Shown here: positions 4,158-61,450 of the stretch, piece after piece
How positions within the stretch are numbered: the first letter of the stretch is position 1
How the letters are laid out: each line of letters begins with the position of its first letter
DNA from: an archaeon HR01
GTDB lineage: Archaea; Thermoproteota; Nitrososphaeria_A; Caldarchaeales; Caldarchaeaceae
Direction of reading: 5' to 3'
Assembly: GCA_002898355.1 (NCBI GenBank)
Contig: BEHD01000010.1
Span: 2,637 to 66,636 of the forward strand
Length of the DNA stretch: 64,000 nt
Made by a program: the position numbers and the translations under genes
The notes under the pieces: model-generated
The model's database searches: none
What the model was told of the DNA's origin: nothing
The model's input: only the letters and a program-made list of their open reading frames with translations

Positions 4158-5981
4158 GCGTAACCTCCTTCCAGAATATAGTGCGTTGATGATAGCTCTC
4201 CCATTCTCCGACCTCTTGCTCACCTTGATGACACCTCTCTTCCCTACCGTAGCTGAAAAAAGGTACTGCCCATCCACGTAAACATTCAGCCTCCCTCTAG
4301 CCACATCATCCTTAAGGACAAGATTGACTGTGTTCCCACTCTCCGTAATCTCGAAATCTATCTCCCTACCCAGGGTTGGGATTTTAGGTTCCACCTCTAA
4401 AGAGACGCCCAGCTCCTTCTCCAATCTAGCCACGTTTTCTCCGTGTCTCCCTATCAGCCTTGGAACCACATCCTTATCCACCCTCACAACCACCCGGCCG
4501 CCCCCTTTCATCTCAACCTCAGCTGCAGGGTCGTATTCATGTACCGCAGTTCTAACCGACTCCAGTATCTTCGCCCTGTTCTTCTCAGCTTCAGCAGAGA
4601 TCTTTCCCACAGGTATCACAACATTCTCCTCACCGTATGTGTAGATTTCATACTCCAGTTCTCCGGTCTCGAAGTCTCTCACCTCCACTAAAGGCCTTGA
4701 TAGGTCCTGCTCAACCATTCCAGTAGGTACTCTAACAACCAGGGATATCTCATAGACCTTGGCTATCCGACCGTCCTTTAGAAAGATTACGGTATCGATA
4801 ATATGAGGTATCATGCCAAGCTCAACCCTTCCTATAAACCTCTGAATGGCGCCTACAGCATCACTAGCATGTACAACACCGATCATGCCGACACCGGCCA
4901 GCCTCATATCTGCGAAGATGCGGAAATCTTTCTCCCGCCTCACCTCATCAAATACGGTGTAGTCGGGCCTTACCAGCAGTAGTATCTCCGCCGTCTTCTC
5001 AAAATCTCCTTCAAGCGGGCCATACTGAGTTATCTCTGGACCGACCTGCAGGTCTCTAGGGGATTCCAGCGTCTTTACTACCCGGCCCTGCCTGCTGTAG
5101 AACTCGGCCAGACTCGCTGCGAACGTGGATTTACCGCTTCCCGGTGGCCCGGCTATAAGTATACCCTCAGCCCTGTTAGCAAGCCTCTCCATCAGCCTTC
5201 TGGACAGCCTGTAGTCTTCAAGCCTAAGCCTTACTATAGGACGGACAACAGTAACCTCCAACCCATCTGAGAAGGGAGGCCTCGCCACGGCTATCCTGAA
5301 GCTTCCTATCTGGACCACCATGGCACCGCTCCTCATAATCTCCACCACGCCTTCAGGCGATAGGCGGGCGTGCTCCGTTATCTCACGAATAACCTTGTTG
5401 AGGTCTTCAGCCGTCAACGGTTCGTCGGAAATCTTCACAAGCTCAAACCTTCCCGGAGAACCTCTCTTAGCATATATCGGCGCCCCCTCCTTGAGATGAA
5501 GGCTTAGGGTGTCGGGCGTGAAGTATTTCTCGAAGGACATCTCCCTCTCCAGCTCGTCAGGCGGGAAGTATCTGACCGATATGCCCTCGGTCTCCGCCAC
5601 CAAGGCCTGGACAAAGTCGCATGTGTAGAGGGATGCGTTCTCTTTTTTGGCAACCTCCCTGATAAGGGCGTCTATACGCCCGCTTCTAGCCAGTTTAATA
5701 TCTTCTAGGCTCGGCCTCTCCCCGGCAAACCTTATGACAATACCCCGGGGACCAGCCATCTCCCTCAGCTTCTTCAGCTCATTAAGACCGATGAAGCCCG
5801 GCTCTCTTTTCTTGGAAGCCTGGGCCTGCAGCTCATCGATTACAGCCACCGGAATCACTATCTCAGCATCCTTCAGCTCGCCAGCCTCAGCCATCTGCGT
5901 TATCTTCCCATTTATGATGGCGCTGGTGTCTGGAACTATCCTCAATCCGTAAAATCCTACTATTAGGGGATTAAAAAACAT
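4140..5981 (-). CDS. PIN-domain / PilT-like ATPase / KH-domain protein (COG1855-type archaeal ATPase)
   Basis: N-terminal PIN-like DTSAIING...D...ELQ. Walker A GPPGSGKST and PilT/VirB11-like core. C-terminal KH-like VPRLIGRHGENVARLEKELG. Confidence 0.7.
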   Translation of the reverse strand: MFFNPLIVGFYGLRIVPDTSAIINGKITQMAEAGELKDAEIVIPVAVIDELQAQASKKREPGFIGLNELKKLREMAGPRGIVIRFAGERPSLEDIKLARSGRIDALIREVAKKENASLYTCDFVQALVAETEGISVRYFPPDELEREMSFEKYFTPDTLSLHLKEGAPIYAKRGSPGRFELVKISDEPLTAEDLNKVIREITEHARLSPEGVVEIMRSGAMVVQIGSFRIAVARPPFSDGLEVTVVRPIVRLRLEDYRLSRRLMERLANRAEGILIAGPPGSGKSTFAASLAEFYSRQGRVVKTLESPRDLQVGPEITQYGPLEGDFEKTAEILLLVRPDYTVFDEVRREKDFRIFADMRLAGVGMIGVVHASDAVGAIQRFIGRVELGMIPHIIDTVIFLKDGRIAKVYEISLVVRVPTGMVEQDLSRPLVEVRDFETGELEYEIYTYGEENVVIPVGKISAEAEKNRAKILESVRTAVHEYDPAAEVEMKGGGRVVVRVDKDVVPRLIGRHGENVARLEKELGVSLEVEPKIPTLGREIDFEITESGNTVNLVLKDDVARGRLNVYVDGQYLFSATVGKRGVIKVSKRSENGRAIINALYSGRRLRLVVTD

Positions 5982-56551: not shown

Positions 56552-57196
56552 ATGCCCCTTATAGATCTCTCACAGGAGATCAGCCCTCGTACACAGGTCT
56601 TCCCCACATACCCGACACCGTATTTTCTCCTCTGGACTAGGAGGGAGATATACGGGTTTGAGGCTGAGGTTTTGATGATGGCTGTACATACGGGAACACA
56701 TGTGGATGCACCATACCATTTCTCGCCGGAGGGTGTGGGGATAGATGAGGTGAGACCTGAAAAGCTGGTGGGGGAGGCTGTGGTGGCCGATTTACATGGC
56801 GTGGAAGAGCTGGAGCTGATAACCTTGGAGAGATTTCTGAAGTCGCTATCAACAGAGGTCAGGGAAGGCGACATCGTCTTGGTGCGGACAGGGTGGGATA
56901 GATACGTTGGCGATAGTAAATATGTAAAGTCATATCCAGGGCTCTCCAGAGAGGTTGCCGAGTATCTCGTTGATAGGAGGGTGTCAGCCTTGGGAATTGA
57001 CACACCCAACCCAGACCACCCCCAAGACAGCACCTTCCCAGTCCACAATACTCTTCTACCAAGAAACATCCTCATCATAGAGAATTTGGCAAACCTAGGC
57101 TCTGTATCAGGCCGTCGGATACGCTTTATCGGCCTTCCACTGAAGCTTAAAGGATTGAGCGGCTCACCTATCCGTGCCGTAGCGGAGGTGCCATAG
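56552..57196 (+). CDS. cyclase-family protein (kynurenine formamidase-like, PF04199)
   Basis: HTGTHVDAPYHF metal-binding signature. 214 aa. Confidence 0.65.
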   Translation: MPLIDLSQEISPRTQVFPTYPTPYFLLWTRREIYGFEAEVLMMAVHTGTHVDAPYHFSPEGVGIDEVRPEKLVGEAVVADLHGVEELELITLERFLKSLSTEVREGDIVLVRTGWDRYVGDSKYVKSYPGLSREVAEYLVDRRVSALGIDTPNPDHPQDSTFPVHNTLLPRNILIIENLANLGSVSGRRIRFIGLPLKLKGLSGSPIRAVAEVP

Positions 57197-57197
57197 C

Positions 57198-57728
57198 TCA
57201 TCGGGAGACCCATCTGCTGTTCCTCACATAGAAGCGGAGGAGCCTGTTCTTTCCTTTACTGACGCCTATACGCCTGCTCACAGCAACTTCATCCACCGCA
57301 TATCCATCATCCTCTACCCATACCTCATCAGAGGTGCAGAGGTCTATGCCGTCCAGTCTCCTGTCTATTTTCAAGGTTCTACAAAGCCTTCCAGGTCCGG
57401 TGGTACTTCCTTCAACGTTTTCAAGGGGTTCAGCAGACCTTATCAGAACAGCTTCACCCCCACCCCTAACAACATTCATGCAGTGGTTGTTGTGAACCAT
57501 GTAGACATAAAGTGTTCCAGGGCTCTTGAACATGCTTCTATTCCGTTTGGTCATGCCTTTGAATGCGTGGTTGGCTGGGTCATTCTTCACATATGCCTCC
57601 ACCTCAGTAATTCGGCATCTTATCACGGCGCCGTTCACAGACCTCACAAGTATCTTCCCCAGCAGCATCTTAGCCAGCTCTACCGTATCCCTGTCGTAGA
57701 AAGATGGGCCGAGCCTACTCCCAGCCAT
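57198..57728 (-). CDS. DNA-3-methyladenine glycosylase (AAG/MPG family)
   Basis: LGPSFYDRDTVELAKMLLGKILVRS...EVEAY...GMTKRNRSMFKSPGTLYVYMVHNNHCMNVV aligns with the human AAG core. Start set at MAGSRLG. Confidence 0.75.
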   Translation of the reverse strand: MAGSRLGPSFYDRDTVELAKMLLGKILVRSVNGAVIRCRITEVEAYVKNDPANHAFKGMTKRNRSMFKSPGTLYVYMVHNNHCMNVVRGGGEAVLIRSAEPLENVEGSTTGPGRLCRTLKIDRRLDGIDLCTSDEVWVEDDGYAVDEVAVSRRIGVSKGKNRLLRFYVRNSRWVSR

Positions 57729-59035
57729 ACATATTAAAGGCTGCGGAGCCATTAGAAAAACTAAAATCCCAACCATCACAAACTGTTAGCCGACCCCTTC
57801 TGAAGATAATTGCAGACCTACAGATACACAGCAGGTTTTCAGGAGCCACATCCAGCAGGATGAATCTTAGAGAGATTACCAGCTTCGCCAAGATGAAGGG
57901 TTTAAACCTGCTGGGCACGGGAGACGCCCTCCATCCTGTGTGGCTTGAGGAGCTGAGGGCCGGACTGGAGCCTTCGGAGGGTGAGGGCGTATATAGGCCG
58001 AGGCATGACCCGGAAGCCAATGTCCACTTCATAGTCCAGACAGAGGTGGCGACTGTACACAGCTATGGGGGGAAGGCTAGACGCATACACCACGTGATTC
58101 TGATGCCTGACCTCGATATGGCTGAGCAGGTGAGGGATATTTTGAAGGGCTATGGAAACCTTGACAGCGATGGCAGACCTGTCCTCAACATGTCACCAGC
58201 CCATCTCGTGGAGATGGTGATGGAGCTCTCCAGCCAGAGCATCATATTCCCAGCCCACGCATGGACACCGTGGTGGTCCATATTCGGAGCCTTTGGAGGA
58301 GTGGACCATATAGAGGAGTGCTACGAGGATATGACAAAGCATATCCACGCCATAGAGACGGGACTATCCAGCGACCCATCCATGAACTGGAGGGTGAGCT
58401 GGCTGGACGGCTATGTGCTTCTTAGCTCTTCGGACGCCCACAGCCCCTACCCCTTCAGGATAGGGAGGGAGGCTGTAGTCTTCGAGCTTGGCAGGCTCAC
58501 GTATAGGGAGCTGGTGGAGGCCGTAAGAATGAGGGATAGGGAGAAGATCTTGATGACCCTTGAGGTCCCGCCTGCGTATGGCAAATACCACTGGTCGGGG
58601 CATAGGGAGTGTGGGGTGGGGCCCCTCAGCCCTCGAGATGCAAAAAAGCTGGCCTACAGATGTCCAGTATGTGGTGGGAGGCTGACCAAGGGTGTGGAGG
58701 ATAGGGTGGAGGAGCTGGCCGATAGAGAGCCCGGCTACACGCCAGCGGACGCCATACCTTTCAAAACCATGATACCGCTACAGGAGCTCATGGCCCTCTC
58801 GATGGGGCTTGGCCCAGACTATGAGGCAAAGCTGATGAGCCGGAAGATCTGGAACACATATGAGAGGATGATTTACAGGCTGGGGAGCGAGTATGCAATA
58901 CTGTTGGATATATCGATAGATATGATACGTCAGGAGGCGGGTCCCAGGCTAGCCTCTATGGTGGAGCTGATGCGTAAGGGTATGCTGGAGATAGTTCCCG
59001 GATATGACGGAGTGTATGGGAGGCTTGTGTTCTAA
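57704..59035 (+). CDS. PHP-domain nuclease with C-terminal zinc finger (EndoQ-like)
   Basis: N-terminal PHP H-x-H (IADLQIHSRFS), further His/Asp metal ligands, C-terminal HRECG...YRCPVCGG. 443 aa, similar size to EndoQ. Start codon uncertain (overlaps the divergent AAG gene). Confidence 0.45.
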   Translation: MGRAYSQPYILKAAEPLEKLKSQPSQTVSRPLLKIIADLQIHSRFSGATSSRMNLREITSFAKMKGLNLLGTGDALHPVWLEELRAGLEPSEGEGVYRPRHDPEANVHFIVQTEVATVHSYGGKARRIHHVILMPDLDMAEQVRDILKGYGNLDSDGRPVLNMSPAHLVEMVMELSSQSIIFPAHAWTPWWSIFGAFGGVDHIEECYEDMTKHIHAIETGLSSDPSMNWRVSWLDGYVLLSSSDAHSPYPFRIGREAVVFELGRLTYRELVEAVRMRDREKILMTLEVPPAYGKYHWSGHRECGVGPLSPRDAKKLAYRCPVCGGRLTKGVEDRVEELADREPGYTPADAIPFKTMIPLQELMALSMGLGPDYEAKLMSRKIWNTYERMIYRLGSEYAILLDISIDMIRQEAGPRLASMVELMRKGMLEIVPGYDGVYGRLVF

Positions 59036-59115
59036 TAAATTTATAAATAGTTTCGGGATTGACGCTTATATTTTGCTGTTTTTCTCTCCCTTTCACCCGG
59101 TTCGGGGGTGTTCTC

Positions 59116-60744
59116 ATGGTCAAGTGGAAGACTTTACAGCATAACGGGGTTGCCTTGCCCCCACCATATGAGCCGAAGGGGCTCAGTATATGGATAAGGG
59201 GGGAGAAGATACCCCTCACACCTCTACAGGAGGAGATGGCCTATGCTTGGGCGCTCAAGAAAGATACACAATATGTTAGAGATCCCGTATTCGTCAGAAA
59301 CTTTCTCAAGGATTTCCTAGCGACCTTCGATGAAAGATTCAGAGACGCAACCATTGAGGAGATAGACTTCGGCGAGGTCTTCCAATATGTTGATAGGGAG
59401 AGGGAGCTGAAGAAGGACAAGGAATATAGGAAGAAAATTTCGGCGGAGAGGAAGAAAAAGAGGGAGGAGCTTAAGAACATCTATGGATACGCCGTGGTTG
59501 ATGGTAAGAAGGTTGAGGTGGGGAACTGGATGGTGGAGCCTCCAGGGATCTTTATGGGTAGGGGTGAGCACCCACTACGGGGTAGGTGGAAGCCGAGGAT
59601 ATATGAGGAGGATATCACGCTCAACCTTGGCGAGGAAGCACCTATTCCACCGGGCAACTGGGGACAGATAGTCCACGACCATAATTCGATGTGGCTGGCC
59701 AGATGGAATGATAAGCTGACCGGGAAGGAAAAATATGTATGGCTCTCCGATACGGCAGACCTCAAGCAGAAGAGGGATAGGGAGAAGTATGAGAAGGCAC
59801 GGATGCTGGAGAAGCATGTAGAGGATGTGAGGGCTGCAATCCTGAAGACCATGGAGTCGGAAGACCCTCGAAAACGGAAGATTGCACTGGCTTGTTTCCT
59901 GATTGATAGGCTGGCTATGAGGGTTGGCGATGAGAAGGACCCTGACGAGGCTGATACTGTAGGCGCCACCACACTGAGGGTTGAGCATGTGAAGCTCTCA
60001 GGCACAAAGGTCTCCTTCGACTTCTTAGGCAAGGACAGTGTACGCTGGCAGAAGGAGATAGACTTGAGGAATGAGCCTCCTATAGTTCATAAGGCCCTTT
60101 CAGAGCTCCTGGAAGGGAAGAGGCCGGGGGACCAGATATTCGACGGCATATCCAGCAGGTCTGTTAACAATTTTCTCGGCAAGCTTTTGAAGGGGTTGAC
60201 GGCCAAGGTCTTCAGAACATTCCTGGCCACAAAAGTTGTGAAGGATAGTCTGAGGAATGTGCCTCTCGAGAAGGCTAAGACCTCAGAGCAGGCCGCCATC
60301 TATTATGCAAAGCTGGCCAACCTCAACGCAGCCATAACCTGCAACCATAAGAGGGCGCCGCCCAAGAACTGGGAGAACTCCATAGCGAAGAAGGAGGAGG
60401 CCGTGAAGAGGATTGAAGAGCAGATAAGTGAGGCTAGAAGGGATAAGAAGAAGAGGAAGAAGCTGGAGAAGCTCCGGGAGAGGTTGGAGAAGGCCCGCTA
60501 TAATCTAGATCTGGCCCTTAAGACGCGGGACTACAACCTCAACACATCGCTGAGAAACTACATAGACCCCAGGGTCTATAAGGCTTGGGGATTAATTACG
60601 GGGATGGATTGGAGGCGCATATATTCGGCTAGCCTTCAGCGGAAGTTTAAATGGGTTGAGCGGGCTTCAGTCAAGGAGTTTGTCGCCGAGATAATCTCCG
60701 CTCCAGAGCTGAAGGCTCAGGCGGTCACACAGGTTGGAAGCTGA
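59116..60744 (+). CDS. DNA topoisomerase IB, eukaryotic type
   Basis: N-terminal KWKTLQHNGVALPPPYEPKG matches the TOP1 core. Catalytic-Tyr box TSLRNYIDPRVYKAW (SKxxY). Start set at MVKWK (the ORF-track start at 59059 adds an unlikely extension). Confidence 0.85.
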   Translation: MVKWKTLQHNGVALPPPYEPKGLSIWIRGEKIPLTPLQEEMAYAWALKKDTQYVRDPVFVRNFLKDFLATFDERFRDATIEEIDFGEVFQYVDRERELKKDKEYRKKISAERKKKREELKNIYGYAVVDGKKVEVGNWMVEPPGIFMGRGEHPLRGRWKPRIYEEDITLNLGEEAPIPPGNWGQIVHDHNSMWLARWNDKLTGKEKYVWLSDTADLKQKRDREKYEKARMLEKHVEDVRAAILKTMESEDPRKRKIALACFLIDRLAMRVGDEKDPDEADTVGATTLRVEHVKLSGTKVSFDFLGKDSVRWQKEIDLRNEPPIVHKALSELLEGKRPGDQIFDGISSRSVNNFLGKLLKGLTAKVFRTFLATKVVKDSLRNVPLEKAKTSEQAAIYYAKLANLNAAITCNHKRAPPKNWENSIAKKEEAVKRIEEQISEARRDKKKRKKLEKLRERLEKARYNLDLALKTRDYNLNTSLRNYIDPRVYKAWGLITGMDWRRIYSASLQRKFKWVERASVKEFVAEIISAPELKAQAVTQVGS

Positions 60745-61450
60745 GAAGCAGGCCATCAGGAAAGCGGTTTGGGATAGGCTGGAGAGAGCAGGTGTCGCAC
60801 GTTTCCCACGACCTGTGGTGGGTAGGATACCTAACTTCATAGGCTCCGAAGCTGCTGCGGAGATGCTGAGGAGGTCTGAATCCTACATCTCGGCTACGAC
60901 GGTAAAGGTGAACCCGGACGCTCCCCAGAGACCGGTCCGGGAGATGGCCCTCAGGGATGGGAAGACACTAATCATGCCCACGCCACGTATAAGGCATGGG
61001 TTCCTAGTTTTGAGAGCCGGTGATGTTCCAAAATCCATGTTGAGGCGGGCGTCAACCATAGGCGGCATGTTTGAGCTGGCCCGAAAAGTGGAGTCCGCCG
61101 CCCTACCCCATGTCGACCTAGTTGTGGTAGGCTCAGTGGCAGTTACGGGGGATGGATGGAGGCTGGGTAAGGGTGAGGGATACGCCGAGCTGGAGTATGC
61201 AATCCTCCGTGAGATGAAAGTCTTGGACCCAGATACTCCCGTATTCACAACGGTACACAACCTCCAGCTGGTCGAGAGGATACCGCACACAGCCTACGAC
61301 CTGCCTGTGGATAAAATCTTCACCAACACGACAGTCATAGAATGCCCGAGGCAGCCAAAGCCAGAGGGGATTATGTGGGAGATGCTTAAACCTGAGAAGC
61401 TGGCGGAGATACCGCTGCTGGCCGAGATATATAGAAGGCGGAAAACCTAG
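60734..61450 (+). CDS. 5-formyltetrahydrofolate cyclo-ligase-family protein
   Basis: MTHFS-like pattern with LGKGEGYAELEY (GxGxGY[YA][DE]). 238 aa. Confidence 0.5.
   Translation: MEAEKQAIRKAVWDRLERAGVARFPRPVVGRIPNFIGSEAAAEMLRRSESYISATTVKVNPDAPQRPVREMALRDGKTLIMPTPRIRHGFLVLRAGDVPKSMLRRASTIGGMFELARKVESAALPHVDLVVVGSVAVTGDGWRLGKGEGYAELEYAILREMKVLDPDTPVFTTVHNLQLVERIPHTAYDLPVDKIFTNTTVIECPRQPKPEGIMWEMLKPEKLAEIPLLAEIYRRRKT

Follow-up and report, generated by a model that had tools for sequence, protein, structure and literature searches.

Neighbouring AAG glycosylase, EndoQ and topoisomerase IB genes in a Nitrososphaerota archaeon: probably a local synteny, with a probable non-canonical EndoQ start

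The endonuclease Q (EndoQ) of Pyrococcus furiosus (PfuEndoQ; PDB 5ZB8, 7K30-7K33) is a PHP-domain enzyme whose metal ligands, His8, His10, Glu76, His84, His139 and Asp193, were described as "completely conserved" (PMC5961232). Its essential single zinc is held by E76, H84 and H139, and the H8A variant keeps about half of the activity (PMC5961232, PMC8307549). Cleavage of abasic sites by EndoQ is also reported (PMC4357722, as cited in PMC8438529), and in Thermococcales a C-terminal PIP box mediates stimulation of the enzyme by PCNA (PMC4858679). Reviews still describe a narrow distribution of EndoQ (PMC8438529, PMC5961232). Archaeal topoisomerase IB (topo IB), for its part, is described as a phylogenetic hallmark of the phylum Nitrososphaerota and a functional relaxase (PMC4824112, PMC8748870); structure 6z01 is that of CsTOP1 from Caldiarchaeum subterraneum (PMC8748870).

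Here, we analysed a 64-kb stretch of archaeal DNA (the window) in which genes for an AAG-type glycosylase, an EndoQ homologue and a topo IB follow one another. An original prediction, made from the letters of the window, had read the trio as a dedicated repair cluster with overlapping divergent starts. We consider it rather likely that these are three independent DNA-maintenance genes, brought together by local lineage-specific synteny and not forming a dedicated system, that EndoQ starts near CTG 57800 and that the overlap is an artefact.

Identity of the three proteins

A check of the ORF list placed all three ORFs where the original prediction had put them, and their identities, AAG/MPG glycosylase, EndoQ and topo IB, are those that it had named (Table 1). 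All three genes are already recognised within this archaeal group, the best matches of AAG and EndoQ being Nitrososphaerota and Caldarchaeum MAGs. Together with the topo IB match given below, these matches place the window in a Caldarchaeales-like archaeon (Nitrososphaerota, formerly Aigarchaeota). Their enzymatic activities are presumed here from homology. An Rfam search of the window returned no structured RNA at gathering thresholds.

Table 1. Features of the AAG, EndoQ and topo IB locus (window coordinates)
Feature	Position	Strand	Remarks
AAG/MPG-family DNA-3-methyladenine (methylpurine/hypoxanthine) glycosylase	57198..57728	-	176 aa from ATG 57728
Divergent spacer between AAG start and conserved EndoQ N-terminus	57729..57799	.	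71 bp, A/T-rich
Upstream extension of the EndoQ ORF, probably not coding	57704..57799	+	32 codons; homologue comparison, pLDDT
EndoQ homologue, conserved core	57800..59035	+	411 aa, CTG at beginning; PfuEndoQ 5zb8 match
Spacer between EndoQ and topo IB	59036..59115	.	80 bp, A/T-rich, GC 0.40
Eukaryote-type DNA topoisomerase IB	59116..60744	+	542 aa; Pfam, 6z01 match

The AAG-family identity was borne out by Pfam PF02245 (7e-51; 172.6 bits for a cut-off of 27, covering positions 1-180 of the 181 in the profile), by TIGR00567 (1.2e-43; 148.9 bits, over the cut-off of 116.35) and by human AAG structures, which align from ORF residue 21 on (E=6e-32). The longest ORF, 57198-57779(-), reaches GTG 57779; relatives are annotated as 176-177 aa, the nearest being 93% identical. 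Like human AAG/MPG and bacterial Aag (PF02245), the protein is single-domain and alignable over its whole length; it differs in being short and in having no N-terminal extension. The positions of human Glu125, Tyr127, His136, Tyr159, Asn169 and Arg182 carry the same residues, E125, Tyr127, His136 and Asn169 aligning with ORF residues E61, Y63, H71 and N102. We take E125 to be catalytic, Tyr127, His136 and Asn169 to be base-binding and Tyr162 to be intercalating; the Tyr162 position is occupied by His96 (ORF numbering), within "YVYMVH" for human "YVYIIY". The protein is predicted to be a monofunctional glycosylase that would flip out alkylated purines and hypoxanthine and leave an abasic site. 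A later AAG start would remove the overlap with EndoQ, but the next Met is ORF residue 38, and beginning there would cost an N-terminal segment conserved with human AAG; this option was rejected.

The eukaryotic-type topo IB was also correctly recognised. It contains Topoisom_I_N, Topoisom_I and Topo_C_assoc (Pfam E-values of 2.4e-74, 1.2e-68 and 4.8e-17) and aligns with the Caldiarchaeum enzyme (6z01) from residue 1, with E=2.5e-262. CsTOP1 (PDB 6Z01/6Z03) and Nitrososphaera viennensis TopIB are its closest known relatives, and it is near-identical to CsTOP1 across residues 1-523, with no notable difference. The segments TLRVEH, FLGKDSVRW, AKVFRT, CNHKRAPP and SLRNYIDPR, identical or near-identical to those of CsTOP1, presumably carry the active-site Arg, Lys, Arg, His and Tyr that correspond to human R488, K532, R590, H632 and Y723; the protein thus has the N-terminal DNA-binding domain, the catalytic core and the C-terminal domain of the eukaryotic type. 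The protein would be the hallmark relaxing enzyme of Nitrososphaerota. As ATG 59116 aligns with CsTOP1 residue 1, the spacer that separates it from the co-oriented EndoQ gene is exactly the 80 bp that had been predicted.

The PHP-domain ORF of 443 aa, 57704-59035(+), had been assigned to EndoQ on architecture and size, and the assignment proved right by sequence, fold and active-site residues. The suggested comparison with P. furiosus EndoQ gave an end-to-end phmmer match with E=2e-64, in which query residues 36-441 align with residues 4-380 of the chain, and full-length homology at about 34-35% identity. TIGR00375 matched with E=4.6e-60 and 204 bits, under its equivalog cut-off of 326.6 bits, and the local Pfam copy gave zero matches. 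[quoted passage not shown] A histidinol phosphatase or a PolX-type PHP protein, the identities that would have spoken against EndoQ, was rejected: other PHP proteins reach a TM of about 0.3, versus 0.8-0.9 for EndoQ.

We then read the PfuEndoQ alignment against PMC5961232 and PMC8307549. Pfu H10, E76, H84, H139, D193 and H195 correspond to H42, E114, H130, H185, D244 and H246, and Pfu T142, W144, E167, G169, L170 and S171 to T188, W190, E218, G220, L221 and S222; the mapped catalytic and pocket residues are all invariant in a 21-sequence alignment. The window protein therefore keeps the metal ligands E76, H84, H139 and D193, W144 and the complete lesion pocket (His139, Thr142, Glu167, Gly169, Leu170 and Ser171). 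Conservation of the PHP ligands, which had been proposed as a check, holds for five out of six (H42, E114, H130, H185 and D244) but fails at His8, replaced by Gln40; Gln occupies this position in 21/104 close homologues. While Gln40 breaks the "completely conserved" rule, activity would nonetheless be expected, since H8A is still half-active and the essential zinc is bound without His8.

The zinc site was also only partly as anticipated. It does not lie at the protein end: it occupies positions 300-323, and a helical domain of 120 residues comes after it. The C4 site of PfuEndoQ (Cys249, Cys252, Cys268, Cys271) becomes H-C-C-C (H300, C303, C320, C323), three Cys being kept and the first, Cys249, being replaced by His300. 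His is found at this first position in 120/120 top EndoQ matches, and zinc binding by the H-C-C-C site is plausible. Moreover, the window EndoQ ends 4 residues past the GYDGVYG motif, without the C-terminal disordered tail and PIP box of PfuEndoQ. Of 120 homologues, 108 carry a tail with a PIP-like L-x-x-[FY]-x at its end, and those of the window clade (8/120) have no tail; the feature is accessory rather than catalytic. Because of Gln40 and the missing PCNA-binding tail, the activity and the partners of this protein, whose host is a Nitrososphaerota archaeon and not a euryarchaeon, may differ from those of the Pyrococcus enzyme. A dU, dI or abasic residue would be flipped into the pocket beside the zinc centre (E114, H130, H185, D244), and the backbone would be cut at the phosphodiester bond directly 5′ of the lesion, from which strand-displacement repair could start.

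Start of the EndoQ gene

The original prediction had reported a 5′ overlap of 25 bp between AAG and EndoQ. As ORF geometry this stands (ATG 57704 for EndoQ, ATG 57728 for AAG), but the evidence suggests that both starts are not used, and the overlap is probably an ORF-calling artefact. ATG 57704 is the only in-frame ATG, GTG or TTG for the EndoQ extension, which over its first 25 bp lies antisense to the start of AAG. The ORF sequence has no canonical start between 57704 and motif I. No homologue aligns with the 32-codon extension. Between the window and its closest relative (locus L087), the extension has accumulated 12 non-synonymous changes and 1 synonymous change, and L087 has an in-frame TAG at codon 5; in L081, L082, L090 and L091 it has in-frame stops or no canonical start. 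AlphaFold models residues 1-28 as disordered (pLDDT <50). The 20 codons that follow the extension show 7 synonymous and 2 non-synonymous changes between the window and L081. The extension thus evolves as non-coding DNA does and, unless the in-frame stops are recoded, is interrupted in relatives.

In the alignment, most of the listed homologues have their initial Met four residues before ADLxIHS. At this position, the 66 loci scored have ATG (35), TTG (14) or CTG (6) among their codons, and the window, which is outside these 66, likewise has CTG. Of the seven CTG loci, including the window, six are from the window clade and the other one is L086. CTG 57800 is common to all seven clade members, the outgroups having ATG or TTG. 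Altogether, an extension that is non-conserved, stop-broken and disordered, and a shared CTG at the conserved N-terminus, point to near-cognate initiation and to a divergent promoter spacer of 71 bp. A non-ATG start, mentioned as an alternative in the original prediction, is now the favoured explanation of the overlap. As to the codon actually used, translation would most likely begin at or just after CTG 57800, a near-cognate codon of TTG ancestry, and not at ATG 57704.

The spacer itself has a GC content of 0.42, versus 0.50-0.55 in the flanking coding sequence, with TATA-like runs ttagaaaaactaaaat at 57752-57767. L087 and L001 have an identical 71-bp spacing, with an A-rich element in the same place. 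We propose that 57729-57799 is a shared bidirectional promoter region, out of which AAG and EndoQ would be transcribed divergently.

It could be argued that the overlap is real, EndoQ being translated from ATG 57704 with a lineage-specific disordered N-terminal tail, from a promoter inside the AAG coding sequence, which would make the 5′ mRNA ends antisense and perhaps interfering. Indeed, ATG 57704 is the sole canonical start that retains the essential first beta-strand and motif I, and L001 EndoQ also has an upstream start (GTG, -7). The frame is open through 32 codons, but the chance expectation of this is about 0.2 and the model predicts disorder for this stretch. Furthermore, the extension contains a stop in L087, and in four other relatives a canonical start is lacking altogether, while their cores are still under purifying selection, and no TATA-like sequence was found upstream of 57704 within AAG. 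We regard a real overlap as unlikely, and return to the non-canonical start. In a more specific version, which we consider somewhat less likely than not, EndoQ of the whole clade would be made at a very low level from a conserved near-cognate codon, either CUG 57800 or AUA/AUY two-three codons on, descended from UUG. Four relatives have no ATG, GTG or TTG start at all for EndoQ, and an 8-codon ATG mini-ORF ending at a UGA that overlaps the EndoQ CTG in L001, L081, L082, L090 and L091 suggests termination-reinitiation at CUG. This last idea is speculative, because the mini-ORF frame has no canonical start in the window, and in L087 only a shorter 6-codon TTG version. It speaks against a near-cognate start that, to our knowledge, there are few documented cases of archaeal genes beginning with CTG, ATA or ATT. 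If true, a DNA-nicking enzyme would be held at very low levels through such a rarely documented mode of initiation, and the near-cognate start would explain why gene callers truncate EndoQ (M53) or over-extend it (57704). A further counter-argument is that the window, unlike the four relatives, does possess an ATG in frame at 57704 and no stop after it, which leaves some probability to the use of this ATG and to a real divergent overlap of 25 bp.

Synteny of the trio

The trio is adjacent in six relatives of the window only. The order hisD-hisB-cyclase-AAG(-)-EndoQ-topoIB-MTHFS is found in L001, L081, L082, L090 and L091, and partially in L087. A tblastn search of 80 other GTDB loci found neither AAG nor topo IB within 6 kb of EndoQ in 79 of them; the remaining one is the nearest relative. 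At the next-closest EndoQ homologues (64-67% identity) the synteny is absent and the neighbours differ. The dedicated repair cluster that had been proposed is not supported: the adjacency is limited to one narrow clade, in which the unrelated genes on either side keep their order just as well. Against the reading as mere synteny, AAG and EndoQ have stayed together as a divergent pair across about 25% protein divergence.

In Caldarchaeum sp. (L088/L089), AAG lies directly behind a UDG gene, 6 bp downstream. As in the window, AAG adjoins a uracil-processing enzyme there and converges on hisD; the partner is, however, no divergent EndoQ but a uracil-DNA glycosylase of family 4/5 type, encoded on the AAG strand. 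The 64-kb window contains no UDG gene. In two lineages, therefore, AAG has a uracil-processing enzyme as its neighbour, and the two enzymes are unrelated, which hints that it tends toward deaminated-base enzymes and that some functional linkage is possible.

Such a linkage could take the form of a co-regulated module for deaminated and alkylated bases, in which AAG and EndoQ share a bidirectional promoter, EndoQ serves both as dU/dI nickase and as abasic-site endonuclease for AAG products, and topo IB is expressed by read-through. Since abasic sites are also cut by EndoQ, the AAG product could be its substrate, and the recurrence of AAG beside uracil-processing enzymes goes in the same direction, as do the spacer, which measures 71 bp in each of the window, L087 and L001, and the divergent pair in 7/7 clade members. 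In the five clade loci long enough to show it (L001, L081, L082, L090 and L091), topo IB comes 58-80 bp after EndoQ in the same orientation. But it has its own elements, a TATA-like aaatttataaatag at 59037-59050 and a Shine-Dalgarno-like GGGGGTG run 5 nt ahead of its ATG, so that a promoter may lie in this spacer. In addition, the unrelated his, cyclase and MTHFS neighbours are conserved at least as well as the adjacency, which is lost at 64-67% EndoQ identity and missing from 79/80 other loci. We find the module improbable, and any functional coupling of AAG, EndoQ and topo IB, EndoQ acting on the AAG product included, would be conjectural. It is far less probable still that this EndoQ homologue acts not primarily in genome repair but against uracil-containing or otherwise modified foreign DNA. 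An antiviral role was suggested for a bacterial (Bacillus) EndoQ (PMC8307549), and loss of the PCNA-binding tail in the window clade might uncouple EndoQ from the replisome. However, the gene lies on the chromosome among conserved housekeeping genes, defence genes and mobile-element signatures are absent from its surroundings, and the family is near-universal across the related lineages sampled. Three independent genes in a lineage-specific order remains our preferred reading.

Distribution of EndoQ and use of the locus

This locus corrects the existing picture more than it extends it, and opens no long-standing question. For annotation, it illustrates how gene callers, faced with a non-canonical start, arrive at a false divergent overlap or cut the protein short. 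Enzymologists gain ready comparisons for Pyrococcus EndoQ: natural variants with Gln in place of His8 and His in place of Cys249, and a clade without the tail. An EndoQ outside Euryarchaeota, which the original prediction held to be notable in itself, is not: homologues are abundant and already named in many lineages. Among 8000 candidates scored, 7630 are homologues at E<=1e-10, and among the matches listed many from Nitrososphaerota, Methanomethylicia, Nezhaarchaeota and Caldarchaeales bear the NCBI name "endonuclease Q family protein". Among the papers listed by our literature search on EndoQ in TACK lineages, none mentions both. EndoQ is widespread in TACK, DPANN and many bacteria and is not a speciality of Thermococcales or methanogens, as the databases show and the reviews do not. 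Indeed, the 596 confirmed matches in GTDB species genomes come from TACK, DPANN and many bacterial phyla, and homologues are also plentiful in Bathyarchaeia.

EndoQ and its neighbours

The locus belongs to known gene families; its variant features are modest, and one start codon is probably non-canonical. The original prediction placed three large ORFs here, encoding a methylpurine glycosylase (AAG), endonuclease Q (EndoQ) and a topoisomerase IB (topo IB); the ORF listing bears out their coordinates, and profile, structure-sequence and fold matches confirm the assignments. The AAG ORF matches PF02245 in a Pfam profile search (7e-51, profile positions 1-180 of 181), exceeds the TIGR00567 cut-off and aligns with human AAG structures from ORF residue 21 (6e-32). 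The annotated AAG length in relatives (176-177 aa) fits the ATG at 57728. Topo IB, of the eukaryote type with three Pfam domains, aligns residue for residue from ATG 59116 with PDB 6Z01 (E=2.5e-262), the topoisomerase IB of Caldiarchaeum subterraneum (PMC8748870). As topo IB is described as a phylogenetic hallmark of Nitrososphaerota (PMC4824112), its presence in the window is expected. By the topo IB alignment and the best matches of AAG and EndoQ, the window belongs to a Caldarchaeales-like archaeon within that phylum.

Features of the AAG-EndoQ-topo IB locus (window coordinates unless a relative's locus is named)
Feature	Position	Strand	Basis or remark
Cyclase/arylformamidase-like gene	56552-57196	+	converges with AAG (-)
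AAG/MPG glycosylase ORF	57198-57779	-	Pfam PF02245, TIGR00567, human AAG structures
EndoQ ORF	57704-59035	+	ORF listing; PfuEndoQ homology
Topo IB ORF	59059-60744	+	three Pfam domains; 6Z01 alignment
Mini-ORF (relatives)	L081 ~4915-4941; L001 4433-4459; also L082, L090, L091		MGHASEVP* / MKTTSEVP* / MWEGVKMR*

Judged by sequence, predicted fold and residues, the PHP-domain protein is an endonuclease Q homologue. Its match to P. furiosus EndoQ is full-length (E=2e-64), and a profile search finds TIGR00375 (4.6e-60). For its AlphaFold model (input alignment of 21 sequences; pLDDT 87.3), the fit to 5ZB8 gives TM 0.81/0.90 and an rmsd of 2.1 Å, and other PHP proteins reach a TM of about 0.3 at most. 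Mapped onto the published PfuEndoQ structures (PMC5961232, PMC8307549), the essential metal ligands Glu76, His84, His139 and Asp193 correspond to E114, H130, H185 and D244, the lesion pocket Thr142, Glu167, Gly169, Leu170 and Ser171 to T188, E218, G220, L221 and S222, and Trp144 to W190; none of these residues varies in the alignment of 21 relatives.

Three departures from the Pyrococcus enzyme were noted. His8 is replaced by Gln40, and Gln occupies this position in 21/104 close homologues; the Pyrococcus H8A mutant retains about half of the activity (PMC5961232, PMC8307549). The first zinc-site cysteine is replaced by His300, as in all 120 top matches; the site lies mid-protein and not, as first proposed, in a zinc finger at the end. 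Finally, Pyrococcus EndoQ has a C-terminal tail with a PCNA-binding motif, whereas the clade formed by the window and six relatives does not: the window protein (stop 59033-59035) and the database proteins P0001-P0005 end right behind the GYDGVYG motif, and 108 of 120 homologues carry a tail of 19-38 residues with a terminal PIP-like motif of the LEDYF type. This implies, at the sequence level, that the tail was lost in the window clade.

In the closest relative, L087 (GCA_038890035.1), an otherwise intact EndoQ gene, roughly 93% identical, is interrupted by an in-frame stop at precisely the codon aligned to E218, the invariant pocket glutamate (Pfu Glu167). A recent nonsense mutation, a variant within the population and an assembly error are all possible causes.

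The EndoQ family is very large, with 7630 proteins at E<=1e-10 among 8000 candidates scored and at least 596 confirmed matches when one genome per GTDB species is taken. The GTDB matches listed cover Bathyarchaeia, DPANN lineages, Methanocella, WOR-3, Saccharibacteria, Thermodesulfobacteriota and others. Many listed matches from Nitrososphaerota, Caldarchaeales, Methanomethylicia and Nezhaarchaeota already bear the NCBI name 'endonuclease Q family protein', others the old misnomer 'UvrD helicase'. The occurrence of EndoQ outside Euryarchaeota, initially thought notable, is therefore already on record in the databases, and in the EndoQ literature we found no characterised members beyond Euryarchaeota and Bacillus.

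The start codon of EndoQ

Read from ATG 57704, EndoQ overlaps AAG, read from ATG 57728, by 25 bp. Either a shared bidirectional control region or a non-ATG start had been suggested, and comparative evidence leaves both standing. Sequence comparison points to an EndoQ ORF that is called too long at its 5′ end. In most homologues listed, the first residue is a Met four residues ahead of ADLxIHS, at window ORF position 33. The 32 codons upstream align with no homologue and are modelled with pLDDT < 50; compared with L087, where codon 5 is an in-frame TAG, they show 12 non-synonymous changes and 1 synonymous change, and AAG identity between the window and L087 is 93%. Over the 20 codons after position 33, window and L081 differ by 7 synonymous versus 2 non-synonymous changes. 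The open stretch upstream of position 33 contains no ATG, GTG or TTG in L082, L091 and L087; in L081 and L090 a TGA lies three codons ahead of that position, and L001 has a GTG at -7. Four relatives lack a canonical start upstream of a conserved N-terminus that is under purifying selection, and P0002-P0005 are therefore called from Met53, without PHP motif I. That the window protein does use ATG 57704 is possible but rather doubtful.

At position 33, 66 family loci have ATG (35), TTG (14, the nearest outgroups L083 and L085 among them), GTG (2) or CTG (6). CTG is the window's codon too (57800-57802), and of the seven CTG loci then counted six belong to the window clade, the seventh being L086. 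In the simplest history, TTG would have changed to CTG in the clade ancestor, initiation would have gone on at this near-cognate codon or at ATA/ATY two to three codons downstream, and some lineages would later have gained upstream starts. In L013 (Bathyarchaeia), the start position holds ATC immediately behind a stop ('VI*IRVIADLHIHS'), a candidate for a further non-canonical start in the family.

With EndoQ starting at CTG, the AAG-EndoQ spacer measures 71 bp (57729-57799; GC 42% against 50-55% in the flanks), and the window, L087 and L001 share this spacing as well as the position of an A-rich TATA-like element. It would then be a bidirectional promoter region. Five relatives have an 8-codon ATG mini-ORF in the +1 frame whose TGA stop overlaps the conserved CTG (cTGA). 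Because this frame lacks a canonical start in the window and L087 has only a 6-codon TTG version, termination-reinitiation here is speculation.

Gene order around EndoQ

When 80 retrieved EndoQ loci with 6-kb flanks were searched by tblastn with the window proteins, AAG and topo IB were matched only in L001, the closest relative of the set. Among the loci of the nearest EndoQ proteins, the same order, hisD-hisB-cyclase-AAG(-)-EndoQ-topoIB-MTHFS-SnoaL-DsrE-TusA, recurs in L081, L082, L090 and L091 and is seen in part at L087. In the nearest loci with 64-67% EndoQ identity the neighbours differ (LSm and acyl-CoA synthetase; purine nucleoside phosphorylase; LUD-domain protein; methyltransferase). 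The adjacency is whole-block synteny, with unrelated genes kept equally well, and the dedicated repair cluster originally proposed is not supported.

A truly co-regulated AAG/EndoQ/topo IB module appears unlikely. One observation speaks for a link: in Caldarchaeum sp., a uracil-DNA glycosylase (UDG) gene immediately precedes AAG, so that two lineages have AAG beside a uracil-processing enzyme, via unrelated proteins, and a hand-over from AAG to EndoQ is conceivable because EndoQ also cuts abasic sites. However, topo IB has TATA-like and Shine-Dalgarno-like elements of its own in the 80-bp spacer before it. Whole-block synteny remains our reading.

The Caldarchaeum UDG (PF03167) and AAG genes (L088/L089, 4389-5570) are co-oriented and 6 bp apart, with PolD DP2 and a KaiC-like ATPase as neighbours, and they converge on hisD; together they look like two glycosylases that serve deaminated and alkylated bases. 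A 5-formyltetrahydrofolate cyclo-ligase gene is found near EndoQ in the window clade, and five Bathyarchaeia loci (L005, L006, L007, L015, L016) carry homologues with 42-51% identity to window 60734-61450 at ~3-5.5 kb upstream of their EndoQ genes, which may reflect either chance or a remnant of ancient synteny. The window MTHFS-like ORF (TTG start 60734) overlaps the topo IB end by 11 bp (60734-60744); the overlap is 4 bp in L082, L090 and L091, and L081 has a gap. On the other side, the stop codons of the cyclase/arylformamidase-like gene and AAG lie 1 bp apart (57196-57198), leaving no room for separate terminators.
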